Assembly (NCBI RefSeq): GCF_902652985.1 | Contig: NC_047021.1 | Span: forward strand, 24,986,001 to 25,050,000 | Origin: Pecten maximus | Lineage: Eukaryota | Direction of reading: 5' to 3' | Length of the DNA stretch: 64,000 bases | Notes under the pieces: generated by a model | The model's input: the letters and a program-made list of their open reading frames with translations, nothing else | What the model was told of the DNA's origin: nothing | Database searches by the model: none | Made by a program: the position numbers and the translations under genes | Part shown: positions 22,098 to 57,724 of the stretch, in pieces | Layout of the letters: each line of letters begins with the position of its first letter | Numbering within the stretch: the stretch's first letter is position 1

Positions 22098-23028
22098 TTA
22101 TCTTATTTCACAGATGAAATTTCTATTAGTGGAGCATCTTACATCGTACAGCTTAGATCCAGCTCCGAAGATTGCACAATTTTCTGTTGTTTCACCATCT
22201 GGCTCGGTAGGAAGAAAACAACGACATATCTACGCTACTTCCGTCTGAAAAGACCCAGGAACCTTCCGTGACTAGATCCGATGCATCTGTGTAGTATTGT
22301 CCACTCGAGAGATACCCAGACAACGCGCTCATCCTTTCTGTTGAATTAACTTTTACAAGTCCCGCTCCTAAACTGGAACAATAACTCAATGCATCCGAAT
22401 ATATTTTACTTGTAGCAAATACCTTATACATCATTTCTGTTTCCTGGTGATAAGTAAACGTATCTTTACAACAAACCAAAGTAGGGACAGTCCATTCTAG
22501 AGAGGACCCGCACGTGACCTGCGCTGCACCAATATGATAATATCCGGTATTACAAGAATATGTTGCTGTAGAGGAAATGGCATAACTGTTGGCGGTTACA
22601 ACAGCGTTTGGAATAGACAACGGTTGTCCACAAACTCCACCGATACAGACAGAAATACCACTTGATAAGCTCACGCAAGAAAATCCGTTCTCACACGACT
22701 GGTCGTTGCACAAGTAAGACATATTTAAATCAGAGGCGAGTTCACTACGGCGTTTTACAACGAAATTCAAATTTTCTGTGGCTGTAGCGCTGTTGTCGAC
22801 CACCCCTTTATAACATTCTAAGTTCTGTGTATGATAAACCATCACCAGGCAGTTTGCATCTGAGAAACATTCCCTTTCACACTGTTGTAATCCGAATGGA
22901 GATTTAGATACCAGGTCAGTCAAATCATAAGAGGCCAATTGTGGTCTTTGTCTGCAGTTGCCTTTTGACAAATTTACAAGACACATGGAAATGATCCCTG
23001 CCATAAGCAAACGAGTTAATGCTTCCAT
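22098..23028 (-). CDS. Secreted multidomain C-type lectin (signal peptide, PAN/apple-like, EGF-like, Sushi/CCP, CTLD); single exon with a 1-nt frameshift near 22215-22218
   Basis: Signal peptide MEALTRLLMAGIISMCLVNLSKG. QCERECFSDANCLVMVY..CY is PAN-like; CNDQSCENGFSC..C is EGF-like; CGQPLSIPNA..ATYSCNTGY..VTC..WT..C is Sushi; YSDALSYC..LGAGLV..D..EGSWVFSDG is CTLD. After DMSLF the shifted frame gives TEPDGETTENCAIFGAGSKLYDVRCSTNRNFICEIR*, completing the CTLD (309 aa if corrected). Confidence 0.88.
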
Positions 23029-23641
23029 TTTGATTTAATCGCGTCACTTAGACACACATCACTGTATCATCACCTGACCAATTGAGTATGCATTTAAAAA
23101 AACTTACTTTACACTTATAAGATATCAGTTCATTTATGCGTTCAGCCCTTTTTAACAAGCAAACGCTAAATACGGTCTCTCATGGCACCCTGAGATATTG
23201 CGATGCATCATACGAGTTATTGGAGAGAGCACGTCAGCAGCTTGGTAATCTCTGAAAATGCTAATGAGGTGACACAGTATATACGAGAGTTGACTACGAA
23301 CTATTAATCAATTCTCGCCTGAAATCAATAGCGTACACTAAGACAATGTGTCTCCAAGGCATTGTTTCCGTTTTAGAGATGGTACAATACTCAAGGGGTA
23401 TATGTTAAGAATAATTCATTGCAGGTGTAATATTTTAACACAAATAGGGGCACGTTGACATGTACCACTATAAGAGGCATGGAAGGACAATTTGTTTCTA
23501 AGTCATATTACACATTTAGCTTTATCTCTATTTCTCAGACTCATATGTTAACATTTCGAAACTAATCATCAACGTCTAGACTTTTACTAGACTGCTCTGT
23601 TCTGATAATGAACGCGGCTTGTACTATAAATATCAAATCTC

Positions 23642-25395
23642 AACTAGAAATTGTCATGGACAATTTGACGGGCTTTTCACACCTTTGACAAACTTAGGGG
23701 AACATTTACCTTTATAATCTTGAATGTAGGTAAAGGTCATTCATTTAAACAAACTTGTTAGACCGTCATTAAAACATGCTACAGACCCAATATCAACTCC
23801 CTGGGCCCCTTGGCTATTCAGAAGGCATTTCAAGATTTTAGCCAATTTGACATCCGTGACCTTGAATGTAGACCAAGGTTATTCATTTGAACAAAGTTGG
23901 TAGCCCTCCACCCATGCATGTTACAGGCCAAATATCAAGTCCTTGGATCTCTAGGTTTTTGAAAAGATGTCGTTTAAAGATTACACAATGATTGGCAATC
24001 ATGAAATTTTCAAAATGGCGTACACCCTGAACCGGAAGTGCTAAAGAAAAACTGAAGGTACCAAAATCATCAGAATAACATACTGCATCGAAAAATATTA
24101 AAAAATTAAAAATGAAAAAATTGAAAATTTGGTGACCTTTGACCCAATAGCGAACTTTGTTATTTGACATCTGACCTTAAAACCTGTAGAAAGAAAATGT
24201 TAGCCCTAAACATTATCTACAATTGATATAGTTAAATGACCTCTGGAAAATGAATACTTTTTGAGTGAATGCCATTTCAAACTTTTCAATACATGACGTT
24301 ATGGCGGCCATATTGGAATTTGGACCGACCCCTTGATGACAAATTAGGTAGCTCTTTATCCCAGTATGCAACAGGCTAAACATCAAGTCACTGGGACTCT
24401 TGGTTATTGAGAAGAAATCATTTAAAATTCTAGACTATTTGACACCTTGTGACCTTGAATGTAGGTCAAGGTCATTCATAATAACAAACGTGGTAGTTCT
24501 TCGTCCAAGATTATTACAGGCCAAATATCAAGTCCCTGGGACTCTTGGTGTTTGAGAAGATGTTGTTTAAAGAGTTTTTAATGATTGCACAATCATGAAA
24601 ATTTTCAAAACGTTTTACCACTTGAACCGGAAGTGCTAAAGAAAAACCGACGGTACCAAAATCATCGGAATAACATACTGCATCGAACATAATAAAAAAA
24701 AATGAAAAAAATGAAAAAGTTAAGAATTTGGTGGCCTTTGACCCCATAGCTAACTTTTTTATTTGACCTCTGACCTGAAAACTGTTGGTGAATAAAAGTC
24801 AGTGCCAGCACTTATCTACAAATAACATAATTACATAACCTCTGTAGAATGAATCGTTTTTGAGTTATGGCGATTTAAACTTTTCAATACATGACGTCGT
24901 GGCGGCCATATTGGATTTCGGACCAACCCCATGATAACAAGACTTGGTCAGTACTATCTCATAGTCATGTTATCAAAGTTTGTGCTGAATCCCACTGATG
25001 GAATTTAAGAAGAAACTTAAAATGTGAATGGTCTTTACACAAAAAAGAACAAAAGAAATATTCAAAATGAAGTACCGCGTTAACGGCAAACGCTAACGAT
25101 AAACTAAAGACATCAAAATCATCGGAATGATATAACGCATCATATTCCGAACAAATGTTTGAAAAAGATTGAAAAATGAGGATTTTTTAAAAATAAACTA
25201 ACTTGACCCTGGGAGAGCTTTTTTTATTTGACCTCTGACCTTAAACTTGTAATTTTATAAAAGTTACCCCCAGATTCAATGTACCATCAAATCATAACAT
25301 GACTCTTGTATCTTAAATACTTTTTGAGTTATGGTTATTTTAATCATTTTAGGTATGACGCCATGGCGGCCATATTGGATCTATGACCTACTTTT
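23642..25395 (-). mobile_element. Non-autonomous Helitron/Helentron-like element with ~595-bp internal tandem units (~3 copies)
   Basis: Terminal CTAG|T on the minus strand next to the perfect hairpin AAATTGTC-ATG-GACAATTT. GGCGGCCATATTGGA recurs at ~24303, 24901 and 25366; GTGACCTTGAATGTAG at ~23855 and 24449. Family assignment is inference. Confidence 0.6.
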
Positions 25396-27580
25396 AACAA
25401 CGTTGAAACGATCCTTGATACACCAATAACAATAGAAGATACTTTGTTTGAGCTGAAGCTGATGAGTAGAGGAAAAGCAGCTGGTCACGACAGGATATCT
25501 GTCGAACATCTTCAATGTCTCCCTGATATTATTGTGGAATTACTGGTGAAAATATATAACAATATTGAAATACAAAGTGAAATCTGCCGAGAACATTTAA
25601 AGTTAGGGATAGTTGTAACGTTATATAAAGGAAATAACAAAGACGGGCTTGACGTAAACAGTTATAGGTATATAACACTAATGTCGATAATTCAAAAACT
25701 CTTCGAATAATAATTTATAGGCGGTTAGTTCTGTTCTCAGATGAACAATTTCCCTTCTAAATTCCAACAAGGTTTTCGCCGGGGATGTGGTAGTATCACG
25801 GCAGGATTCATTCTTCATGAAAGTATATCTCACAATATGGAGACGTTTTCTCCGGTATGTATAGCATTTTTGGACAGCCAGAAAGCTTTTTAATAGTGTT
25901 TGGATAGCAGGTCTTTTCTACAAACTTTACCAGCTTGGAATAAATTCTAAAACATGGAGACTCCTGTATAATTCATTTCAAAACGTGAAAGTCATGGTAC
26001 TCTATAGTGGAAAAATGTCGGAACCCTACTTCGTCACACAGGGCGTCGGTCAAGGCCGAACCATATCTGCCTGGATGTTTCTCGTCATGATTGACGGCCT
26101 AGCGCAGGAACTAGATTTGTCCCAAAACGGTATATTGGTTGAAAACATACAAGTTCCTTGTATACTACTAGCGGATGATACAGTACTTGTGTCATAGCTG
26201 GATGTAACAGAATGTTGCAACGGCTCCTTGATATTGTATACAACTACTCGTGTAAATGGAGGCTTAATTACAACTCTACCAAGAGTGCAGCTGTGCTTTT
26301 TCGTCCTGAAAGAAGGATCGACGTTGGAAAATGCAAAGTATCGCTTGGCCAGGAACAACTTCCAATTGAAAATTCAAAAATATACGCGGGAATCATCTTT
26401 AATGAAAACCTCAAAAGCGATCTTGCTATACGAGAATCCATTAATAAAAATATAAATAAACTGAATAGCTTCATTTCAATTGGAGTCCACAAAAACGGAA
26501 TGAGCCCCGTCACAAGTGTGTCGATATGGAAAAGGATAATTTCACCATCTCTTTTATTCGGTTGTGAATTGTGGAGCAATTTTTCTAACTATTCGTTAAA
26601 TAACATCGAAATATTCCAACGTAAAGCCGCACGTAGAATACAAGGTTTCGACACTCGTTCTCCGAACGCAGTAACCATAGCCTCATTAGGCCTTCGTGAG
26701 ATTAACACGAAAATTCAACAGTCCAAGCTTTTCCTTTGGAATAAGCTATGTACAGGAGAGGATGTTTTTCTATGGAAACAAATTTTCGACACAAGATTGA
26801 CAACATATTTGACCAAGAACAAGCGTTCATTAGGATGTATACCGGATGTACATAAGATAATGGAAAAGTATAATATAGAGGGATTCTTCAGATTATGCAA
26901 TCCAGATGATGACATTCCATCTAAAAGGTCCAGGGAAACAATTTATCAAAAGAGTGTCACAGACGTATGAAGAAAACAACGGAGAGAATCATTGGCAGGA
27001 AAGGATGGTTTGCGTATTTTCAGCAGTGTTCATGTCAAACTAGATGATATACATCCCTTTTGGAAAATATCTAAGCTTAGTGTTAGAGAAACATGGCTGT
27101 TGGGAGAGCTAATACAGCTGTCATTTGTCTCGGAAGTCTATCCCGTCGTCTGTAAGCTATGTGGTAAAACGGTAACTGATATAGTGGTCCATTTCCTCAT
27201 TGAATGCCACATTCTCTTCGCTGAAAGAGACTTGATTCTAAAGTCAATTGTGAATTTCCTCCCTGTCACCGACTACGTGAAATTCACGGAGATGAGTGAA
27301 ATAGAACAAACAGAATTTATTCTTGGCAAACGGTCAGATGAGGTGACACTATCAAAAAAAACAAGGATTGAAATGATAAAATGCATCGCAAATTTGATAC
27401 CTAAAATGTATTTGAAAATTGACGCAATATTATAAGTGATAATTAAAACATGAACTAGATCAACAACGAACTGTTAATATCGATATCAATAATATATCAC
27501 CTATGTAATTCATTTCACTGCACCATATCTATTTGTTTGTAATCTCATTGAAATGGGGAAATAAAGATTATCTATCTTTC
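25395..27580 (+). mobile_element. 5'-truncated, decayed non-LTR retrotransposon (LINE; RT plus C-terminal Cys/His finger, RTE-X/Proto2-like)
   Basis: RT motifs GKAAGHD, LYKG..D.NSYRYITLMS..KLFE, QQGFR, AFLDSQKAF, GVGQG, LLADD, PSLLFGCELW; C-terminal CKLC..HFLIEC. Several frameshifts and an in-frame TGA at 26968. 3' AATAAA followed by a TATC-type tail. Confidence 0.9.
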
Positions 27581-32700: not shown

Positions 32701-34884
32701 CATTGTTAGGTAGTATTTCGTCTACAGAGAAATAGAAGAATCGGAGGCGGTCCGATGAAATAAGGATGGTTATTCTTGGTTGTTTTACTCTACCATCAGA
32801 ACCAGGTGACAAATGAATTGGACAACCTCCTCATTGTCGCTGTATTTTGTCATTTTGCCAATTTAATACAATAATTGTGAAAGGTATATTTCTATGCAAA
32901 CGTTGGTAAAATAAGACACTGAAACCTTACCTTGATATTCTGGAGGAACCATCTTAGATAGCGACACTTTTAGGCATGGTGGGAAAGCCATAAGGAGAAT
33001 ACCAATACCGGCTCCTACAGGAAGAAACATGTATTTTTGTAATTTTGATCATAAAAATGGATCATGTGTGTTGGTTGAAATGTAACCAGATCCATTTTCA
33101 TTTATTATTCGGCATAAATTGTGTATTTTGATTGGGCAAAGAAGAAATTCTAACAGTGTGGACAATGAAAAATGTCATTTTTTCGAGTCACTTCATCCCT
33201 TTATCAAGACATAGAGAATTGATAAAGAGGTGGATAGCCTCGAAAATTTTATTGTTCGCACTGTTAGAATTACTTGTTTGCCCCATATTAACATAATTCG
33301 TTTCCTGCAGACAAACCTTTGGTAAAATCCTGTGTTATTCGGATAATTACCGTGGATAGTACGTTTTTAACCAATATATATATATATATATACAACATAG
33401 AGGTTATCCGTAAGAAATTCATTTCAATTTTAACAAATTTTATTGTACAAAGTATTCAATAGGATCAGATAACAGGCTAAGCCTTTGCAAATCTTCAAAT
33501 CCGTGAAAAAAATGTTTTACAATCATGCAATAATTGCTTTACATGCAAGCCTAAAACAAGAGCATTTTCGAATGAATTTATCACTTTGATAATTATAATT
33601 TTATCATAATTGTTAGAAATAGGAAGCAAAAGATAATTACAGGTATTAATTCATAAAACAATATAACGTACATGTTTACTGGTTCAATAAAACGTCATAA
33701 AATGATTACATGGCTCCGAGGTGCCCATTGTAGCTTAACTACATATTACCTGCATATATCATCCAGTCTGTAACAGCGAATGCAAACATCAGATAAAACC
33801 CCATGCCTGACAATAAACCCAGGACTGCAATAGTTTCGTCACTGAAACACTTCTGTAATATCATCATGAGCGACGGGCCAGCGAGCATATGTACGGCTGA
33901 CTCGGCAGATTGGAACCATCCAATATATTGGGAATCCCAGCAAAAGGGTGTTCTCAGCTGAAGCAAAATTTCTATATCCTCTCTGTTGTCGTTAGGCGCA
34001 TAGAAAAATAGAAAACCCACCAAAGACGCTATATACACCCATATAGGAAAACGTTTATTTTCTTTGTCACTGATAAATGTTTTTAGATTCGATAAAATGT
34101 TTCTAAAACCAGAACTCTTGACTTCGACTTCATTTTTAAAAAACAGAATTACCAAAGCTGCAGCAAGTAGTAAAAGCAAGAATGCAAAGGCAAGAAGCCA
34201 CACAAATCCAGAGCTTTTAATAATAAATCCCTCGACGAATTCGGAAGAAGATAGCCCTACACCAGCTGAGAAATACAATAAAGCAAATGCCAATGAACGC
34301 GATTTACTAGCGACTGTCAAATCTGCAACAGACGCCGACAAAGTTGCAAAAAGGTTAAATTGTGCGCCACCAAGACCTGATATGGCATATCCTATATACA
34401 GATAATCTAGAGGCAAATCAAACGCGGCTACTAAGGACATACATCCATAAAGTAAACTATTGGCCACAAATGAAAAAGATAAACAGTATTTTCGTCCAAT
34501 AACATCAGAGTAGGTACCTAATAATGCTATCATAGGAATGGATATGGACATCTGTACCAGACTTAAATGCCACGTAAGAGTGGCTGCCTCTGTCTGACTT
34601 TCGTCCTCGGCAAGAGACCCGTTGATCTTCCCACACGTCACTGCGGATTTGTTGAAGGCAGAGCTAGATCTAGTATCACTGATTCGTTTGTATAAGAACT
34701 GAGTTTTACACAACATAAACGTGCTGTAACTGATAGCAAAGAGTAGCATCAGGATGTTCCTCAACATCAATCCTGACCATTGGGTTTGTTTGGATCCATC
34801 AGAAATCAATGGACATTGCTCGTCTTTGTTGCCAGTATTAGACTCAACGGCGTGTGCAACTGGTTGTTGTGGGTTGACTCGCAT
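29750..34884 (-). CDS. SLC46-family MFS transporter, copy A (PCFT/SLC46A3-like), 482 aa, 4 coding exons
   Basis: Exons 34884-33750, 33014-32931 (84 nt), 31756-31600 (157 nt) and 29822-29750, all GT-AG and in phase (1,1,2). MFS motif A GTYSDVIGRK; SGLGG; PFCWDS..IG; LSKMVPPEYQGTLFA, typical of SLC46. Confidence 0.9.
30330..31050 (+). mobile_element. Degenerate Tc1-like transposase remnant in intron 3 of SLC46 copy A
   Basis: Homologous to the 37420-37920 copy (GGGAGGC..TTCTTATGGAG, AGATACAGAGACCAG, CAAGACAATGCT = QDNA); many stops and indels. Confidence 0.65.
33144..33271. mobile_element. Foldback MITE-like hairpin in intron 1 of SLC46 copy A
   Basis: Arms AATTCTAACAGTG ... CACTGTTAGAATT; inner CTTTATCAA ... 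TTGATAAAG. Confidence 0.55.
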
Positions 34885-36826
34885 TTCGCTGACAATGAAG
34901 TTCCGATGTTTAGATGGTTTCCTTAGCTAGCACAATAAAACGGAATCGGTCAGCATTAAACAGAACGAATGATTCCTATTGATGTTGGGACATGTTCAGT
35001 CCATGAATGTATGTAAATGAGTAACAGTGTTGTCGAAGAGAAAGTACATGACATCATCAATTTAAACTTAAGCACTCTGGTGTTGTATCTATTGTAGGAG
35101 AGATAACCTACATAATACCACCTGTTATAGTAATACACCAAGATGATAACGAGACTCCTGGCCGGGTCAGTATATATGCACACATTGATATCATATGATC
35201 CATGATAATGATAATCTATATACATTGTTTAAGTAGCCTTAAGCAATTGTGCATTAGACTTTTTATAATGGTTCATAAGTTAGGTCAATGGCTGAATTTC
35301 TATTACATAGTTTCAATCGAACATGTAATATCGATAATCGTGTGAAAACCCGATATTAAACTAGCTCAGGAACGGACATACGTCCCTCCGGGTAACAGGT
35401 TATTGAGCACGAAATCGGGTTATATTCGTATTGTTACATTGCAATGTGTATATTCTTCTACTGAGATAAATGTTAGCAGTTTTAACATTTCTACTTCAGT
35501 TTTGTGGTGTTCATATTGGTGATGACGTAATAAATTAATTACTTCATAATTGACATAATCACATTATACATCAGTTGATTGTACATATGAATTATCTTTT
35601 GTAAGTGTTTCTTATGAAAAAAACATCAACACAGCCGTCAAAGATATACAAAATTCTAGTAATCATGAATGATATCCTAATCACTTAATTCTGCATTAAA
35701 ACAAACTAATCTTTATTGTTATATAGCATATAATGAATACTGAAATGAAGTAACTCTCGGAGTACCTTTGTAAAAATGGCATCGAATCGATAGATTTATT
35801 CAACTCGGTTTGAAATACAATAATATAAATATGTCTAAGGTAGCTTTTGTTGATTGATTTGTCTGTACTATACCTGATATGCTTGCCTTTAATGAATGTT
35901 CTCTATCATATCGTTGAACAAATCAAAATCTATCAGACATCTTAAATGAACAATTTAACTTTTTACTTTTATATTTTGGCATTGTAGACTGTGTTTGCTT
36001 TGATAACACGTTTGCAAAGAAAGAAAGACAATGTATATTAGCATTTATGAGCATTCAACGCTGTATCACAAGACTACATCAAACTGAAAATCCAAATATT
36101 TGATATACAAATGTATATCTGCCTCAGTTATTCTTAAATTTGTCACAGTTAGGTGTTCACCATTTACCTGACAGTAGATCAGAACTCACTAGAATTGTTA
36201 GTCATCACACTAGGTAATAGGAGGCTGTTATGAAAAGAAAACTATTTGACGCAACCAGTTGCTCTGGTAGAAAACGAACTCATCTAACCCGTCCGGAAAA
36301 TTGTCTTATTATATGGCTCTTATTTTTCCTGCAAGCAACTTGGTCAAAACAAATCGAAAGGTTTATAACATATTACTACGAGTCACAAAGCCCTACATAA
36401 TCCTTGCACATGAGGTAAATATAACCGCCCGAATCCCCGTCAGGCGCATAACAGATGTATAGTACAATCCAATATAATATTGTTATCATTAAATACACAT
36501 GTTTACGTTTATCACAAATGTCATACAATAAAAGAGTTATTGACCAATAACAATGTAATTATGTCCATTGCTTAATCAACCAACATTATTTGATCAATCC
36601 TCAAAAGTGATATTTTTCTCAGTTAATATCACCTTCTCAGGTTAATAAGTCATCATATTCATCTTAAAACAGGTCAATAATTGTATACCTATTTTTTACT
36701 ACTTGATACAAACTCAACTGATATATCACATGATCCACGTTGCCATTTCGATACTGGAAACATTTTAGATATTAACGATACCTGAATTAAGCTTTAGTGA
36801 GATGTCATTGCCTCTGTGCAGGAAAG

Positions 36827-43505: not shown

Positions 43506-46063
43506 TAACCTCAACATTGTTAGTATCGTCAGGTGGATTACTGTTCATCAAATCGACGTTATCTACGCATGGAGTGTCACTTCTTCTGCAGTTCACTGAG
43601 GGTTCATTGTCTACTGTGGTATATAGATTAGACGTCTCCCACGACGAGGTCAAACACAAACAGATACTGAAACGTACCAACAAAGATATTACACGGGAAA
43701 TATGGAAACAAAACAATTCAAATACATGTTTAACTCAAAAGATATGAACACTTCGTTACACGTTACTTGGACTTTTTTATATTTAACATGAGAATTGAAA
43801 AAGGTTGTAGCTGTAGACATTAAATGTGTTTTAGCATGTAGCTGAAAACATCAAATGTGTAGCTAAAGAAACGACTATTGAGATAATTTAATTGCTTTTT
43901 GTCAGTTTATTACATGTGCATGTATTTTCTTATAAAACGTAGAATCATAATAAATCGACACGGGTGTGATATTTTATTGATCTTATCGTTTACAAACTGA
44001 TATTAACACAGGAAAAGATAACAGTTATGTTGGATATAAAATTGTCTTATTGCTTTATTCAGATGTATCTGACATATTCAATATGTGTAGATGTAATTTG
44101 TAATATTGTACATAGAAGATATACCTACATCAATAAGATCCCTGATAAGAGGTAGACTCCTGCCATGACAAGGAACGTCACACCTTTCATGGTGGTTTGT
44201 GTCTCGGCATAAACGTTGTTGTAAATTGTGCTTCCGCCCAAACTACACAACACTTCAAATATATAGATGTTGGCAAACAATGCGCCTGGAATAAAAGCGG
44301 AGATTGCAAAATATATATTACAAGGAGACATATATTCACTGTCCGCGCGAGTTAAAAAATAAGTACTATATAGTTTCTTTTCCTGGTTATTGTGCTACTG
44401 ACTATTATTAGCAAACTTTCAATTGCCATGAATACTCACTCCAATATAAATATACATCATTCTCGAAGCACAAACAAAACAAATCTATTAATTATAAAAT
44501 GTTTTCACTTTTTAGATAGTAGGACATCAATGACTGTATTTCATCTTACCTTGTTTGTCTGATAAAACTGTTTTCGAAAATATTCCCCTTATCAGCGGTA
44601 GCGGGACTATACACATGATTCCGAGCCCTGTAGCTGAAATAGTCATGAATGAGTTGTGTATACCTCACTATAATAACTAAATCTACATAATCGAACGCTG
44701 TACAAAATTAATTTGATGTTACGTATTGTTAAAAACTTAACGTTACTATTGATAAGTGTTAGGTTCGGTGGTGTGATCTCATTTCATGTTTTCAGTCAGT
44801 TGAGAGACTGGTTGGATCACATAAATTAATAGCATTAATGAAAAAAATGTTACTGTGTTGTAGGACAGACTTACCAAGATACAGCATCCAATCGTTGGAA
44901 GCAAACCCCATTATTAACATTGACGCGATACCAGAAACGCATCCAAGAATACATATTATCTCATCGGAAGTGCAAAAATGTAGAAGTTTTATGAGGATAA
45001 CTCCAACAACCATTTGAACGAAGTCTTTTGCGGCACGATAATATCCTATCTTCACAGATGACCAGCAAAATGGAAAATTCAAGGTGTATAGAATCTCTAT
45101 ATCAGATCTAGCACTTCCCATACTGTAGAGGATGATAAAAACAACTGCATTTGTTAGAAATATAGATAGTGGCATATTTCGTCGTTGTTCTTTATGTGTG
45201 TAAAAACCTGTTATTCTTTTGATAGCATCACAAATACTCCATGATGTTTTGTGTTTTGGTGAGTTGGCATGTTGTCCATTTGTACGGGTTTCTTTATATA
45301 GACATATGATAGATAATGATACTAATATAAATAACCCAGCTACCATCATATTGATATAGATATAGCCCGTAATCTTTATCATGTATCCAGCTGTGATTTG
45401 TGCCACCAAGCCACTGACACCTACCACAGCATCAAGCAATGCAATGCTGAACGTTCTTTGTTTGCTTCGAGCTGTGGTATCTGCGATAGCTGCAAAGGTT
45501 CCAAGATAGAACGAAAAGTAAGTCCCTCCTAAGCCACTAACCGCAAACGAAATATACAGGTAGTTGATGTGAAAGTCTTTATAAATGAAAAACGACGTAA
45601 TTCCGTATTTTAAGCATTCTGCTACCGTTCCGGCAATCATCAAAGGTTTTCGACCAATTCGATCTGAGTAAATTCCGAAAAATACCAGAACCGGAAGAGC
45701 TATTCCTTTTTCGGTCAAAGTGAAAAAAAGAGTCAAGCGAGCTGCGAGTCTTTGGTACTCGTCCTCAGCATCAGATGATGAATTTGTAGCACATTGTTGT
45801 GAGTTGTTACCAGTTGAGGTGGCATTGGTCTCTGGGATGAGGTCAGGCAAGACTGTGTTTAAGGATACCCATTTGTAGATGTATTGAGCTTTACTCACAC
45901 CTCCTATAGTCACAGCACATGCTATCAGAATAATGTTTATATTCCGTATGATGAAGTCATTGGTTGAGATGGTTATGTGAGTATCATGGTCTTTCTTGGA
46001 TACATTCTGAATGACTCCTCTTCTTTCATTCGGAAGAAGGGCACTTTTTTCATTGGTGTCCAT
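43480..46063 (-). CDS. SLC46-family MFS transporter, copy B (PCFT/SLC46A3-like), 538 aa, 4 coding exons
   Basis: Exons 46063-44875, 44633-44550 (84 nt), 44285-44129 (157 nt) and 43666-43480; same internal exon sizes and phases as copy A. Motifs GIYSDRIGRK, SGLGG, FAAIADTT, PFCWSSVKIGYY, DKQGALFA. The last exon assignment is less certain than exons 1-3. Confidence 0.9.
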
Positions 46064-46065
46064 CT

Positions 46066-46119
46066 CTAACGATACATTAGTAAATGTGAGTATAATAGGC
46101 GATTCATATCAGATGACAT
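46066..46119 (-). promoter_or_regulatory. Candidate uORF (17 aa) ending 2 nt before the SLC46 copy B start codon
   Basis: ATG..TAG reading MSSDMNRLLYSHLLMYR*, downstream of a plausible acceptor TATTCAG at 46135-46136. Confidence 0.4.
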
Positions 46120-48670: not shown

Positions 48671-51464
48671 GCTGGTGGACGAAACAACTTAATGATGAAG
48701 TTTTACTCTTTTTTTTCATTTTTATTCCTGCTTTGCTTTCCTGGATCGACACGGCATTGATCTTCCCAACAAAATCAAATTCACGTCTCGCCGAAGAAAA
48801 TTGTCCTGTTGTAATATTACGTTGTGGTGGGGTATAAACGGTCCGGCGGCATGTATGACATAACACTGTACCATGTTTACAATTACAAATAAACACACCA
48901 TGTGATCATAACCACTAAAATACTAATACTCTTCTTAACGTTGTAATTGATGTAGCACTAATGTCAATTTAAACATTCTAATATCTCTAACGCAGGACAA
49001 ACATGGCAGTACATAAATGAAACTGGAAAATTTGATATGAAACCAAAAACCTCATCAGTGGATGGCCAGTGTGTTATGTATATGGACTGTGTGGCCTGTA
49101 TCTGTTGGGGGAACAAATTCAATATCACCAAATATTTATGTTTGACAGTATATTTATATCAATATTAATATTTATTGCTTTGTATTATTCACTGATAATA
49201 TAACAATCCAGTATTTAAAATCAAGTATTCTTAGTCAAAGGGTTACTCTCTTAAACAACATTGAATAAGTCTAACAACCTCAAGGAGTTACTTCCCCTTA
49301 AGTCAATTTGTCATATCAATGTGTACCTATACATTATATTTGTCTGTATTTCTTACCATCTGTTATTACTAAGGAGAAGACCTGATGTCCAATTACATTG
49401 ACTTTCTTTCTATGTCAATAGAATTTGTTGAAATTGAATTTGAATCGGTGGTTTATTGCCGTTTCCCTTCTATATTCTTCATTTCCTAAATATGAACTTT
49501 TATCTCAAAGATCAGTCTTTCTGGAAAGTGAGAAGAAAATACATCTGATTAATCTATTCCAATTTGGATATAAACTATTTGCAAATCAATTAGATAGACA
49601 TTGAAGATGTATATCAATTTCGTAAAATCTAAGGTTTTAATCCTGTTTTTATATTCCATTTCGGTCGTAATCACCTTAGGAGTCATAGTTATCATAATAA
49701 ACATATTTCAGACGTAAGTTTTACCTGTGTTACACACACTTATAGAACATTAAAGGTGTATAATAAAACAATGATGCTTAAAAACTACAACAACTCGCTC
49801 AAAGAAAACTGGATTTATTAAATCTTCAGAGGATACAATCACAAAGAGTACAATTAAAGATAATGACTCAAAAACCCATATAGTTCATTGTTTTAGACAT
49901 AAAGCGAAGGGGGAGACGTGGGAAATCATGTTTTAATTACTGAAAACTGACAAAGAGATAGGTTAAATGACACACGTTATCTAACGTTTTACTTTATATA
50001 CATACATAAATATGTAAATTACAAAAAAGAAGAATGACAGAAAATTGATAATTTAATAAACTTATCTTCATAATAATCTGGTTCCTTTTTTTCGATTTTG
50101 CATATCTAAAGTCATTCTTCGTCCGATACAGACGATCCAACCGTTATATTATATGTATATGTAATGATTGATATAATTGTTTTACACTATATAAAAATAT
50201 TTCAAAATTACAAAATATGACAAAAAATATTCTGCTACAGGATGATATAAGATAACAATGGCACATGAACTCTGAATGTACTTACCCATAATAACAACAC
50301 TATTCAATGCGATTTTACGTTATAGTTCCTGTCTAGTAAACAAATTAGTCCACCATCTCAGCAAAACGATTGTATAACAAAACCTTCCAGTGAAATACTC
50401 AATGTAACATGGATATACATTACTTTATAGAACAGAAACATTAACAAATCCAGTTTTACTACATGTAACTGTTCGTAACACATCACTTTAATACATATTT
50501 ACTTTAACTTCAAAATTAAAAAGGAACAAGAATTGAACGAAATTAGATGTCTCGCCTGTCACTGTCTATCACTATAGAAAGCACAATCCAAAACTCACTG
50601 AAATTTCAGTATTTTTTTCTAAAAACAACAAAAAAAGATATGAAAATAACCTCCACCTGACAGTTTCACAGCACCCTGTATACATTATAGACATGTGTAA
50701 TGTTGATGCATTGCGAAAACAAATATTAAATTTCACAAAATCTCAAACTTCTCAAACTTCACCTTAATATATATTTCTAACCTTGAAAAATAAGAAGATA
50801 ATACAGCTGATTCATTACAGAAATTATTCCAATTTGGCTATAAACTTATTTGTAAATCAATTTGAGAGGCAATAGATATTTTATATTAAATTCTCAAAAT
50901 GTTTAACCAAAACATACGGCAAAAAAAAAAAAAAAAAATGTATGTCATCTGTAGGGTGCGTTAAGAAGTTTTTGCTACAATGCAACTATATTCCATGTGG
51001 TTGAAATAGCATTGATGCTTTTTGAGAAACGGAGCTGAACACAAAAAGTTATAGTCCAGATTCCCCGCATCCTTAATTTCCAGAGCCCCCGGACCATTAA
51101 TTCCGGATGTAAATGAAGGCTGTGTTCATATTTCCACTATGTGATCTAACTATATAATAATTGTAAGTAAATTGCAACAATATGATACCCTACAGGAAAA
51201 TGAAATCCATGCATCATTATTTTAACGACATATTGGTTGCTTTTTAAGCACCTGTAGTGTAAAGGGACCATATCCAAATTGTGTAAATAGAGTCTACTTT
51301 AAAAAGGAAAACGTTCATAAAATCAGTTTTCGTCATACTTTTCGAACGTTAGCATTTCAAATACATTTTCGTGTACCTAATCAAATTTTGATTGACGCTT
51401 TTGAGAATTTTATAAACACTTCATACATTTTTCTCCTTCAACTTCATTTTTCACATACTTTTGT

Positions 51465-54400
51465 TCAGTTAGCATGGACTTGGACATGGTGTTTTTTATC
51501 GCTTTTAGTGTGCTGTTTCTTCTTCTTCGTTATCATCTTTTTATGTGCAACTTCATTCTTTTTACGCATGACGTCATTCTTCTTGTGCGTAGGACCATTC
51601 ACTTTGTGGCGCATGAAATGGTTCCGTTTGCGTTGCTGAATGTGATTCCCGATGGCAGCCTTCATTCGATTTAGCCTGGCCTGATTTCGATTATCCGGAC
51701 GTGGTCTCATCATCCGGTGTTTGTGGGCACGTTTCATTATTGGGATTTTCAAGGGATGCGTACTTGAAAAAGTATTTCGACGATGACGCATCAATTGTGT
51801 CCGAAGATCGCGACGGAGACGCTTAATACGCTTGAGCGTCTTTTCGGCCCGAACTCTCTTCGCGCGGTGGAGGACAGCTTCTTTCGGAACTCTCTTCGTG
51901 CGGTGGAGGACAGCTTCTTTCGGTACTCTCTTCATTCGGTGAAGTGGCCTTTCCTTTATATGCGGGTATTTGGCGCGTAAAGATCTTCTTGTACGCTTCG
52001 TTCTATCTAAATAGGGTTCCGGGGGCTCTTGTAAACGCTTCATTCGGGTCAGAGCTGGGTCACTTAACTTTCTTTTTGTTCTAACGAGGTCATGGTTAAT
52101 TTGGAGCTCTTTGATCTCTTCAGCCGCTCTGATATGTCGTTGTTTCATCTGAAAAAGATCAATCAATATGTATCCTTTGCACATAGCATTAATGATTAAG
52201 AATGCATTTTCATATGCAACCTTGAAACTTTTCACAGCCTAATCCAAGCAAATTATTCTGTGAATTATAAACAAATAGAATTAGTCTGATATCTGCAAAT
52301 AAGCATAACAACCCCCATACACACACTCATTCACACACACAACCAACTACACCAACAACACCAAAACAAAAACAAAACACCAACAATTTTTTTAAAAGTG
52401 TTTAACAGAATATATTGATCGCGAATGAAGCCATCAGCAGTGTTGCATAGTTCCATTTGAATTATATCGGAATTAACTGGTTTTCATTCAGGGTTAGCGT
52501 TAGTGTGGGCGGTAACTAATCCTACTGGAGTTAGCTATGCCATATGAATGGCCTCATGTGGCTTATTTACAGACCCTCTACACCTTTTCGATTATGATGT
52601 CACTCTAGATAATGTCAGACTCCCAGTCATATGGAAGACATCTCTTGTTTTCGTTGGAAACATGTGTTTCACAGACTAAGGTGAAAGAGCAACGGCTATA
52701 TACCTGTTACAGATGTAATTGTCATCGAGGTCAATTTTCAACATTATACAAACAATAATTAAACATGCGAGATAAAATTTAGCTACAATTCATAAAAAAA
52801 CCAAATTGATATGTTATTGATTGCACTAACCATAAACACACATGTTACAGAATTCACCGTACGTATCGATTAGGATTCCAGTGGTAAAATGGTACTGTGT
52901 CATTTAGTTGTTGTTTTCTTTCTAGTTCGACGTTATTATATACACCTGGAAGTATATATACCTGTATATAAATCTGCAATTTTATCTCATAAATGGTAGA
53001 ACTGTTATTTTCTTGAGGTAGATAAAAACCAATAGTTCCACCATATACCGAGTGCTTTCTCAACTTAAATGTAAAAACAATGTATCCCTAGGCAGTTCAT
53101 TTAATAAATTTCCATCTTTTTGAAATGATATTGTATTAAAATACTGCTTTCTGAAAGAATCTGACAAACACCAGTTCACCAACTAGACATAAAACTAATA
53201 AAAACTGAAATTGATTTAACTTCCGTGTTGAATAAATGAGTTCTAAGTCATATTGCAGATAATTGTATTGATTCCAACGTCAAGGGAGGATTCCCTCTGT
53301 AGCTATTCCGCGGCGAAGAAAAAAACGTTTGCATCAGGCTTCAGACGGAACCCATACAGTTTTATTTCTTTCATTAGGCTATATTTCATGCCAGGCAGCA
53401 TGCAATATTCCCCGATACATTGTCCATGTCACATATAAGCTAACCCACAACCGCTGTAAATTGATTTTTGATACAAAGTTGCTACTGCGTTGCTAGGTGT
53501 TGTGCGTATGTGTATGACGAAGTAATTAGGATAGGTAGTTCATCTCTAAACGTTTAGATTAACGTACAGATGTACCCGATATATTTATAAAATAAGATAA
53601 GTTAAAACAGTGTTTTTATTTCAGAGTGTTTCACAACAGCAAACAATTGTAAACAGTGTATATGTATTAATTTTGACACAATTAGACTATGCTTGTCCTA
53701 TCCGACATATGGCGAGTGTCATTGGCTTTATGAACTGGTACCTGAGAGGAACATATTTCTATGCAACTGAAATTAGAGGGATATTATAACTGTAATTACA
53801 AGGAACATTTAGATGTATTTACAAAGAAAAGTGACTTTGTAATGGTACAAGAGGCATCGACTTGTTAGTGTTAAATTCTTGGAACATTAAGTTGGTTGTG
53901 GTATTTACGAGGGACATTGACAGGGTAGTTAAAATACCAGGGAAATCCATTTGGAATGGATAATTACGAGGGCCATGATTTCAATGACGAGGGTAATTGA
54001 ATTTTAAGTGGTAACTAAGTAGGACATTGATTTCGAAAGGGCAGCTACAAGGGACATTGACATCTTAGTGGTAATTGCGAGGGGTACTTATTATGTAGTT
54101 ATGTACAGAGTCATGAGGGACACTTGCGATTCCTGAACAAAGGCTAGAGCTAGAACAATGGCTATATCAGATGTAACTCACATCATTGGATAAACAGGCT
54201 CAGTTGTTTAGAATCAAAAATGTTTACAAAGATGTTTTGCACTTTTGATAAAGCTTTTTAGAGATTTAGCTTATATATACCAGAGGAATGTATGTAGTGT
54301 AGACAGGGACGTTGCCATGACATCTGTATAGCATGTACCTATATCACCCCACTTATCACGTGACAAGCTGAATCAGAGATATTTGATCTTACGAATGGAA

Positions 54401-56345
54401 GGTACGCCAAACGTCGTGCGCTGTTTATATAGCTAGTTCTGATCGAACAACTCCGACTTCCCTTGGGGTAATATAGAACAGCGTTTTCTAACCGACTATA
54501 TTGCTGTTATAATAATAACATTAGTTAAAGATGTAACATTTTCAGATTCACCTGAAATTTAAATACAGATTGTTCAAGGTAGACTATTACAATATATTAC
54601 CATAAGTAAAGTATATTATGCTTAACAATAATAAAAGGGTGTTAAGATGTTCTTTACGTTTCAGTATTATTTTCATCTTTTAAGAAAAGAGTTTTACTGT
54701 TAAAATCAATGGGCAATTCCTAAATCGATTATAAGCATATAAACAAAGACACATATATTTCTTATTAAGACGGGAAATGATAGTACATGCAATCGTTAAA
54801 CACGGCACTGCTGGTCCCCGATGGGTAACACAGTATATGTGTATCTTACATCCATGCATTCACGTCGCATTTTTTTTATTCCCTCGAGAGAAACGTGATT
54901 TATTTCTGTGGTAAAACGATCCATAATATGTTGGCATGTAGTCATGTTTATCTTAAATTCTACTTATTTTCAGGAGAATATGCTTTATTTGGAATTCTAT
55001 AATCCGAAAACCTTCCTTCCTTTGAAGCTTATTATCAAAAGGTCCATCACTGTTTCGTATCAATTGCATAACATGATTAAGGTTAGAAAGATGAGTCGAC
55101 ATACAACGAGCTATCTAAATATATCAGAATACTGTAAGCCTGTTAGATTTCGCGAACACTTTATTTCGCGAACTAACGTTTTCAGACATATAAGCGGATA
55201 CATGATTCACGAACGTTGATCAATAAATGACATTAAATTCGCGATGGATGAGCTATTAAAGTCATAGATTCTGCAAGATTCCTATATCGGTGACCGATAG
55301 CTTGATCGCCATCTAAAGATTTTATTTTCGTACAGATAATCGCGAAAATAAAACTCACGCAAAATATAAGTACCTTGCAATATATTCTTATTAAAATACT
55401 TTAAAAAAACAATGAGGCGTTCCCGTCAACATACCGTAATAAAAACCAAAACAAACCAACAAAGCAACACTGGAAAATATGCTTTGGTAAATGTGCTTCA
55501 AACATTCGTGAGGTCCATCATTTTTTTTTTTTTTTTTTTTTGCATAATATTAGTCATTCAAAGCGAGTAATTATCTTGCAGATGTAGTTTAGTTTGTTAA
55601 CAAAAACGTTACGTCGCGTACTTTAAAATATGTACGAGTAAATATCCATTAGTTTTTGTCAGTTATAAAACCAATAATAAAATTAACGTCGATGAATTTA
55701 TTAAGACAACAAAATTTGTGACCAATTGTCTTCAAACCGATCATTAAAAAGTTTAGAATTCATATTTTTTTTGCAATCCTTAAAATGTTTTAGCTTAATG
55801 ACATTGTCGAATGGTTCAAGTACAGTCAGACAAGAGAAACACATGTACATGATTTTAGGACGCAACATGACATAAAATAACACTAGATAACAACTGCGTA
55901 GTACCCTTACTCATCAGCGATCAGTAAATGTTGGTTAAGAACTATACAAGAGTATATTCCATTCTTTAATTTAGATAATGGTACAATTGATATGAAGGAA
56001 AGGCTGGTAGATGAATCTTTGAAAATGCGGTCTTCCGACCAAGCACTGTATGATATTTTTCATCTCTGGCTTACTGTAGTCAAAGTAGAGATTGCACAGC
56101 AATGGCACACAGGAAATAGTAAAAGTTTTGTCATGTGATTCTGAACCAACACTTGTTGACCTACATATAAGTACACAAACCGTTCAAATGTTAGGTCCCG
56201 GCTATGTAGTCTAGAATTACTTAAACTATCTAAATTGATTGAAAATACTAAATAATAATTTATTTTAGTTCTTACTCACCCTTTTTCCTTGAACAAGAGT
56301 ACAAGCCACCACAAGAAGGAGGAAACAGATAGTGCCGCCCTTCAT
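51465..56345 (-). CDS. Secreted, highly basic polyprotein-like precursor with multiple furin/prohormone-convertase sites; 249 aa, 2 coding exons; family unknown
   Basis: Exon 1 56345-56280 MKGGTICFLLLVVACTLVQGKR with AGG|GTGAGT donor (phase 0). Exon 2 52148-51465 follows the acceptor TCTTTTTCAG (phase 0) and is a 227-codon GC-richer ORF with repeated L-x-R-x-K-R motifs. Extra intervening exons cannot be excluded. Confidence 0.75.
53760..54110. repeat. Highly degenerate ~30-bp tandem repeat in the precursor-gene intron
   Basis: GTGGTAATTACGAGGGACATTGA-like cores recur at about 53898, 54008, 54039 and 54068. Confidence 0.55.
55130..55382. mobile_element. Degenerate MITE-like element with TACTGTA-type ends and internal TTCGCG/CGCGAA motifs
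   Basis: Begins TACTGTAAG and ends CTTGCAATA; left TTTCGCGA motifs are mirrored by a right CGCGAAAAT motif. Confidence 0.45.
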
Positions 56346-56391
56346 TTTGAGATATGGTCGATGTTCTTCAAATCAAGAATTCGTCCACTGA

Positions 56392-56397
56392 TTTATA
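56392..56397 (-). promoter_or_regulatory. Candidate TATA box for the basic precursor gene
   Basis: TATAAA on the minus strand, about 47 nt upstream of the ATG, which lies in a CAAAATG context. Confidence 0.45.
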
Positions 56398-57724
56398 CAG
56401 ATATTCATTGGAACCAAAATGGCAGCGCTTCTGTTTTGGTCGCCCAGCCCTTCACGCGAATCAATACTTGTATCGATCGTCACGCTGGTCGTGGAAGCAC
56501 TAGCTCTACTGTTGGTCTAAGTAGCGAAATTCCTGTTATACATTACATACATTTAATTCATTACTGGTGGCTGCGTAGGAATATAAAACGGTGCTATTTC
56601 ATCTCAATGATTGACAAGGCTAATAATACTAGCTGACATTATACAAGCTCATTCTCGCCCATAGTTAACAATAAATATTCGTCTAGCGGAAAATGTCAAA
56701 GGACCACAATTATACGACCATAATGTGCATTTTAAACATGAAATCCTATTATGTGTGCACATCAACAGCAGTAGTAAGGCCGATGTACTACATCGTTGGT
56801 AAATATTGATAAGGCTGAAAACCGAGATAAATCGATTATGTACTGATGTCATTTCAATAAGCAAAGTCACATCTGCTACCTAATACTTCAGTTGACACAC
56901 CATTAATTAAATGAATATCGATATTAATTCTTATACCTGCTACCCTCTTCCTATTTTGTCGAGCACAACACAACATTCTTTACAATAATGGCTGAATGTA
57001 CATGTATAGGCAGTCGACTAATTTACTTTTTACTATATTCCTGATTGATAGTGTTAATGAAGTACTGTTATCCATAGCTGTAACTAACGTTAGAATAATC
57101 TCTCTCCGAAAGAAGTTTATTTTGAGGTGACAAATATATAGCAATGCATGATTTGTAAACAAAGTATGATTTACAAGCAATTAATTAAGTGAATATTGAT
57201 TAATTGTATAAATGTATGCTTTACATGCATGGTTCGCTCATTTACCTTATCTTATGTGTTTTATATGCAGACGAAGTTATTTGCTGAATCCACGTGGATT
57301 TTTATTGTCTGCTTCAAGACATTTTTTTTTTAGAAAAGTGAAAATGAGAAAAAAAAATAATGTAATGTTTGGCTATACATCAGCCTTTGCGATGTATCCA
57401 CTATATAGAACTATAGTACTACAAATGTAAATACAATTATCCGACCTACCATCTATCACATTGTTATCTTTCACACTATTATCTCTTATAAAAACACAAC
57501 AAAATCGGTTTGGAAATATCTAACTGGTGTTATATCAAATTCATTCTTTAAGAGAAATGCAACATTTGATCGCCAATGTACATAGTAAATGAATAAATTA
57601 ATATTTTTTGGAGAATGAAATGTACATTGTACACATAACAGATACTTTAAACTAATGTACGAGACAGTAAAGATGTTGCTATGTTTGGAGCTTTGCCAGG
57701 TTTACAAAAACTGATTAGGAGATG

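Follow-up and report, generated by a model that had tools for sequence, protein, structure and literature searches.

A polybasic secreted precursor of the scallop Pecten maximus is a probable member of the LXRX proneuropeptide family

What is the product of a gene that joins a signal peptide to an extremely basic protein studded with convertase sites, and is it new? The question is raised by a locus on the minus strand of a 64,000-nucleotide stretch of the Pecten maximus genome (contig NC_047021.1, positions 24,986,001 to 25,050,000; the window), with coding exons between positions 51465 and 56345 of that stretch. The original prediction, made from the sequence alone, described an unrecognised precursor and a candidate new peptide or secreted-matrix system. 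The encoded protein of 249 residues is, however, letter-for-letter identical to an existing RefSeq entry (XP_033744451.1, 'uncharacterized LOC117330345', Pecten maximus; here P0003), and matches to profiles and to published rows place the gene in LXRX, a named family without known function. The original prediction had itself listed a match to a characterised family among the outcomes that would refute it, and the claim of a new system is therefore given up. The gene is very probably the orthologue of the lophotrochozoan LXRX proneuropeptide, that is, a neural precursor processed by convertases.

The gene is real and is expressed as a spliced mRNA of two exons. The joint 52148/56280 (4131 nt skipped, GT..AG, minus strand) was found in contigs of all four sequencing runs examined, one run from each of four studies, one of them recorded as RNA and three presumed to be RNA; intron coverage was slight or nil in these runs. 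Of 24 runs listed, exon 2 was present in 18, which come from six studies. It should be noted that the run data are assembled contigs, which carry no expression level, strand or tissue. Exon 1 ends in phase 0 at the donor G/GTGAGT; TTTTTCAG forms the acceptor at 52149/52148, directly ahead of exon 2. Thus, the predicted phase 0 joining of a signal exon to a 227-residue exon was borne out, including the check for RNA reads linking 56280 to 52148 that had been proposed along with it. The warning that the open reading frame track gives this gene a false intronic N-terminus was also correct, as the stop-to-stop frame 52238-51465 opens with 30 intronic codons.

The product of exon 2 (227 aa) contains no Cys and is rich in Arg (16.7%), Lys (15.4%) and His (8.4%), just as had been described; Tyr and Gly contribute 0.9% each, and the isoelectric point (pI) is about 11.9. 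Ten R-x-[KR]-R sites were counted (seven R-x-K-R and three R-x-R-R, the numbers originally given), compared with 1.94 expected, and none of 100,000 shuffles reached ten. The seven R-x-K-R sites compare with 0.96 expected and were reached by 5 of 100,000 shuffles, and all seven have the extended form L-x-R-x-K-R, for which 0.07 are expected and which no shuffle of 100,000 reached as often. The P6 position is Leu at eight of the ten R-x-[KR]-R sites, in line with the claimed preponderance of Leu. Only one Gly, G20 at the signal peptide, precedes a basic pair, and the internal sites are indeed without a Gly amidation donor. One peptide unit has been doubled recently, as had been proposed: a tandem repeat of period 36 was detected at 51851-51941 by Tandem Repeats Finder, and the two copies differ at 2 of 36 nt. 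The extra copy is absent from the three other scallop proteins described below; the duplication is crossed by single contigs without a listed gap in three of the four runs, and the fourth run breaks there.

Searches for known domains and folds returned little. No Pfam family was matched by either exon at E values up to 1. The protein is predicted to have no stable fold (predicted template modelling, pTM, score 0.17), and all structure matches in the ESM Atlas had template modelling (TM) scores of at most 0.49 by query. Two feature matches in the same resource had a score of 0.76, under the threshold for a lead: one was apidaecin-like, and the other was a cluster from fish with the name 'uncharacterized protein si:dkey-12l12.1'. 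No usable feature match was obtained there when the repeat region was searched by itself.

Relatives were found in other molluscs. Three scallop orthologues, including those of Ylistrum balloti and Mizuhopecten yessoensis, have 60-66% identity to the P. maximus protein. A signal peptide opens all four scallop proteins; in exon 1 of P. maximus its hydrophobic core attains a Kyte-Doolittle 9-residue mean of up to 3.5, and its cut is likely to fall after V-Q-G at residue 20, the core and the small residue at -1 being retained in all four. Within the repeat region, 32 of 34 site residues are invariant among the four, compared with 25 of 58 other residues. A profile built from these proteins and searched against 5.8 billion proteins matched P0008 (E 3.9e-5; its cluster includes a Mytilus coruscus protein) and P0007. 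An exhaustive search with the same profile gave five matches, one of which, P0009 (a kinase fragment plus repeat), was rejected as a repeat artefact, with no L-x-R-x-K-R and 2.3 bits. A six-sequence profile gave 17 matches at E values up to 10, among them proteins of Mytilus trossulus and M. edulis, a chiton protein and a cluster that includes a Crassostrea virginica protein.

The family alignment comprises 16 of these 17 proteins, P0013 being omitted as a near-copy of P0012. The aligned proteins share the signal peptide, an N-terminal motif, five to nine L-x-R-x-K-R sites and a basic tail. With patterns written post hoc from the alignment, the N-terminal motif is found in 14 of the 16 (the two misses have no N-terminus) and HH[VI][QR]xH in 15 of the 16, lying 43 aa from the end in the chiton protein. 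When the scallop profile was compared with the profile of oyster and mussel proteins, the probability was 97.2% and the E value 3.5e-11 over 71 N-terminal columns. Scored singly on the oyster and mussel profile, P0003 obtained 19.8 bits, which none of 500 full shuffles reached; the three other scallop proteins obtained 32-35 bits, values without controls of their own. The chiton protein (P0019, Liolophura sinensis), which is labelled 'transcriptional regulator ATRX homolog', has a signal peptide, seven L-x-R-x-K-R and the family N-terminal motif and is probably a chiton LXRX. Another protein, P0011 (ENA), has 397 aa and eight acidic L-x-R-x-K-R units spaced by 12-14 aa, with neither end motif; it may be an LXRX of the annelid type or the product of a mistaken gene model, and the alignment (A3) does not include it.

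In the P. maximus genome, exon 2 gave 17 matches at E values up to 10; judged from the best non-self match (L002, E 0.005), which is a simple genomic repeat, no credible paralogue was found, and no processed second copy of the gene was found with exon 2 as the query. When P0020 and P0008 served as queries, not even the scallop locus itself was recovered, and these searches are therefore uninformative on orthology. Six accession terms did not occur in the main texts of the papers searched.

The family name comes from published rows. The supplementary alignment of Realis-Doyelle et al. 2021 (PMC8398477) includes LXRX rows of C. gigas, Mytilus californianus and Platynereis, the last of which carries the LXRX label given in Conzelmann et al. 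2013 (PMC3890597). By eye, P0020 is identical to the opening 65 residues of the C. gigas row, and the M. californianus row is a close match to P0008. The Yesso scallop orthologue (P0006) is identical, again by eye, to PY_T01465 in supplementary file 3 of De Oliveira et al. 2019 (PMC6425005), where it opens a run of nine sequences that also contains LXRX_platynereis, two phoronid sequences and sequences of four further bivalves; in the sequence set of Thiel et al. 2021 (PMC8557429) it stands directly after the labelled phoronid LXRX rows. Of the features expected of an LXRX precursor, the scallop protein has a signal peptide (as judged by hydropathy and conservation) and no folded Pfam domain, repeated L-x-R-x peptides ahead of K-R, similarity to named oyster, mussel, annelid and phoronid members (by profiles and by-eye row matches), and a basic His-rich tail with the bivalve end motifs in the row counts given above. 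All labelled LXRX precursors examined in the published sets end in such a tail (PMC8398477, PMC6425005, PMC3890597, PMC8557429).

The closest known system is PY_T01465 of Mizuhopecten (Patinopecten) yessoensis (LOC110456206 / OWF46083.1), which is 60% identical to the P. maximus protein over the whole length and has in common with it the signal peptide, nine out of ten sites, the tail and the terminal motif; it differs in that P. maximus has the extra unit of 12 aa that arose by the recent duplication of 36 bp. Cragi-LXRX of Crassostrea gigas (XP_011417984.2; PMC8398477) shares the signal peptide, the N-terminal L-[QR]-L-E-N-E-L-x-R-x-K-R, repeated L-x-R-x-K-R, the basic tail, HHVQxH near the end and the lack of amidation. 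However, its local identity to the scallop protein is about 33% (via the close match P0020), it has five sites, mostly R-V-K-R, with more acidic spacers, and ganglion expression and detection by mass spectrometry were reported for oyster, not for scallop. In the rows of Platynereis dumerilii LXRX (PMC3890597) and phoronid LxRx (PMC8557429), which were compared by eye only, the signal peptide, tandem L-x-R-x-K-R often followed by x-K/R-R, the long basic His-containing tail and the non-amidated products recur, whereas the spacers are strongly acidic and the HHVQxH end was not seen.

Which peptides would be released from the scallop precursor? Carboxypeptidase E-type trimming takes off terminal Lys and Arg only. 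In oyster, seven Cragi-LXRX peptides were detected by mass spectrometry, one of which, LEKEIALHRM, ends in L-H-R-M and is flanked by KK and KR in the published sequence (Realis-Doyelle et al. 2021, PMC8398477). In P0020, three other oyster peptides have K-R directly ahead of their start, and one of these three comes from the tail and is followed by KK. Matching by mass of the seven published entries to P0020 gave three at KR-flanked starts and one with one extra Lys; two of the seven were unmatched (allelic differences by eye), and one matched an unrelated stretch only. Two peptides are reported from Platynereis, and DRDLEEPELSRT ends in L-S-R-T ahead of K-R (PMC3890597). These ends therefore indicate cleavage after K-R, with trimming that halts at the non-basic x. 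Because only Lys and Arg are trimmed, and because detected peptides of relatives end in L-x-R-x, the scallop products should also end in L-x-R-x and be two residues longer than in the first list. The original list (for example, VPKEAVLH) thus drops R-x, and the predicted products are VPKEAVLHRT and VPKEAVLHRA. The predicted masses are 1148.667 and 1118.656 for the duplicated unit, 940.463 for the terminal peptide and 1130.612, 1456.720 and 1168.613 for further products. The long cationic tail, which had been listed as one of the released products, is probably cut, since oyster basic-tail peptides with KR/KK bounds were detected. The broader view of a secreted, non-amidated, convertase-processed precursor with a two-exon gene model is upheld. 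Seven convertase P-domain matches were found in the P. maximus genome, on four contigs.

Expression of the oyster gene is almost confined to the visceral ganglia and depends on the stage, and a paucity of functional reports is noted in the same source (Realis-Doyelle et al. 2021, PMC8398477). By analogy, the scallop precursor would be routed, in neurons or neuroendocrine cells, into the regulated secretory pathway. There, subtilisin-like convertases of the prohormone convertase 1/3 (PC1/3), PC2 or furin type would cleave behind every K-R, which an enzyme of the carboxypeptidase E type would then remove, leaving peptides of 9-24 residues that end in L-x-R-x. The tail would be cut at KR/KK pairs into short peptides, including the conserved terminal His-His-Val-Gln peptide. 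Release from dense-core vesicles would most likely deliver a mixture of related, non-amidated signals, whose common C-terminal L-x-R-x would act through a putative receptor.

Several observations weigh against the assignment to LXRX or against this role. The repeated site supplies much of the score across the family: the 19.8 bits of P0003 were reached by 3 of 500 and by 12 of 500 shuffles in which the sites stay in place, and the similarity of P0003 to the named members beyond the repeated site is modest. The placement of PY_T01465 in the LXRX block is by file order, and the set of Thiel et al. 2021 (PMC8557429) reuses that of De Oliveira et al. 2019. LXRX does not occur among the Yesso scallop ganglion precursors in the searched section and text supplements of Zhang et al. 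2018 (PMC5996578), the figures of which are not searchable. The neural expression comes from oyster and the peptide evidence from oyster and Platynereis, not from scallop, and just one of the seven oyster peptides and one of the two Platynereis peptides end in L-x-R-x. No LXRX receptor, activity or function was found in the published literature. Last, the bodies of the peptides vary among the four scallops to a degree, given above, that is weak for receptor ligands.

The alternative that bears on the step of receptor signalling is a granin-like role for LXRX precursors, as granule proteins by which prohormone convertases are regulated, with the tandem L-x-R-x-K-R sites acting as competing substrates or inhibitors and the peptides as by-products. 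This idea is compatible with membership in LXRX; all that it contests is the role of the peptides as receptor ligands. The conserved element among the four scallops is the convertase site, P6 is Leu at 25 of 27 scallop R-x-K-R sites, and L-x-R-V-K-R occurs exactly at 54 of 129 sites in 12 non-scallop members (8 LKRVKR, 2 LLRVKR, 1 LYRVKR), the rows being related and not independent; the exact proSAAS motif L-L-R-V-K-R occurs in some of the mussel, oyster and other rows. For all three hexapeptides, inhibition of PC2 at 0.36-0.72 uM is tabulated, and the inhibition of PC1/3 by vertebrate proSAAS (PCSK1N) is credited there to its C-terminal hexapeptide (PMC3579927), which has the same L-x-R-V-K-R shape (L-L-R-V-K-R; PMC12083831). 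The conservation of the site, together with its likeness to the inhibitory hexapeptide, is why the family may regulate convertases. High, neuron-restricted expression and the lack of amidation would fit a regulator as well, proSAAS also being neuroendocrine and non-amidated, and ProSAAS is the sole Pfam family that is matched by more than one of the 16 members. However, these matches (PF07259; two of 16, E 0.17 and 0.8) cover only about 30 model positions, those of the motif, and reach at best 12.3 bits, below the curated cut-off of 23. The scallop proteins give no match to this profile, and Val is at P3 in none of the 27 scallop sites. Substrate and competitive inhibitor share one motif, so the likeness may be trivial, and mass spectrometry of relatives indicates that the sites are cut. 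As judged from the sequences, the resemblance to proSAAS is a likeness of motif and not homology. No paper linking LXRX to proSAAS was found among those retrieved on LXRX neuropeptides or on the proSAAS hexapeptide. The polybasic tail is not known to have a counterpart in proSAAS. It is thus unlikely, though the least unlikely of the alternatives, that LXRX precursors serve only secondarily as sources of ligands and functionally take the place of proSAAS in lophotrochozoans, as an abundant protein of neuronal granules with a polycationic, His-rich tail that would aid granule packing.

The remaining alternatives concern the reading of the gene as a neural LXRX precursor itself. Pheromone, antimicrobial and adhesive roles had been regarded as plausible in the original prediction, and none found support. 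Secretion from peripheral tissue of peptides that act as cationic antimicrobials or like pheromones would agree with the pI, with a tail charge of about +27, with a repeat region more basic than its oyster counterpart and with a transcript found in runs of six studies; this is nevertheless very improbable, given that the oyster member is reported as almost strictly ganglionic, that the oyster tail is cut into short peptides and that exon 2 has no Pfam match. The apidaecin feature match is a lead only, and an apidaecin-type precursor (PF00807) was rejected for want of a Pfam match and for its score below the threshold. Still less credence can be given to an uncut basic matrix protein of byssus, shell or egg coat. 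It would suit the His/Lys/Arg-rich, Cys-free composition and the predicted lack of a stable fold, but the convertase sites are the most conserved residues, processed peptides were detected in two relatives, and adhesive proteins differ in Tyr and Gly from the low values of the scallop protein. Charge is the one ground for the antimicrobial, pheromone and matrix roles. An assignment of exon 2 to a basic protein of nucleus or sperm, with an unrelated signal exon, is suggested by the very basic composition and has almost no probability left, being refuted by the exon joint in all four runs and by the signal peptide of all four scallop proteins.

Table 1. Positions in the window of the features of the probable LXRX gene.
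Feature	Position	Strand	Remarks
5' untranslated region (UTR)	56346..56498	(-)	at least 153 nt, from RNA contig ends
Coding exon 1	56280..56345	(-)	66 nt, 22 aa: signal peptide residues 1-20 plus K21-R22
Intron	52149..56279	(-)	sole intron, phase 0, GT-AG, 4131 nt; joint in 4/4 RNA runs
Coding exon 2	51465..52148	(-)	684 nt, 227 codons plus stop
Family N-terminal motif	52071..52130	(-)	residues 29-48: R-x-x-E ... L-Q-[IL]-x-x-[DE]-L-x-R-x-K-R, closing with the first site
LXRX repeat region	51777..52088	(-)	residues 43-146: ten R-x-[KR]-R, seven of them L-x-R-x-K-R, spacing 12-22 aa
36-bp tandem duplication	51855..51926	(-)	residues 97-120, one peptide unit doubled
Lys/Arg/His-rich tail	51468..51776	(-)	residues 147-249, net charge about +27, more KR/KK pairs
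Conserved C-terminal H-H-[VI]-Q-x-H peptide	51468..51491	(-)	sits after a KK pair
3' UTR	49909..51464	(-)	about 1.55 kb; ATTAAA at 49937

The transcript borders in Table 1 were derived from contig ends, which lie at 56498 (two runs), 56490 and 56470 on the 5' side and, close to the ATTAAA, at 49909, 49915 and 49874 (three runs) on the 3' side. A TATAAA at 56397 was considered as the promoter of the main transcript and rejected because contigs extend about 100 nt past it. The 5' UTR contains an upstream open reading frame of 11 codons (56408-56373, minus strand) in the frame of the main ATG, with its stop ahead of that ATG; it may dampen translation of the main frame. Within the 3' UTR, 50809-51157 has short stretches common to many other transcripts, probably a dispersed repeat, and a 24-bp imperfect repeat lies at 51055-51102.

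Elsewhere in the window, two large exons at 44792-46108 and 33739-34926 (minus strand), downstream of the LXRX gene, belong to Major Facilitator Superfamily transporters arranged in tandem (MFS_1, E 7.5e-15 and 3.8e-12), presumably of the SLC46 type. An open frame at 22192-23034 (minus strand) has a likely signal peptide, a weak PAN match and Sushi and C-type lectin domains. At 25387-27435 (plus strand), several frames resemble, by eye, a broken reverse transcriptase of a retrotransposon without long terminal repeats.

As a discovery, the assignment of the P. maximus gene to LXRX is small, and LXRX is still an orphan family, named but without a known function. If convertase inhibition were true, the family would be an invertebrate counterpart of proSAAS. 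The assignment gives corrected peptide masses to scallop peptidomics, and it names as LXRX an 'uncharacterized' RefSeq gene together with its relatives in Ylistrum, Mizuhopecten, Mytilus and C. virginica and the chiton 'ATRX homolog'.

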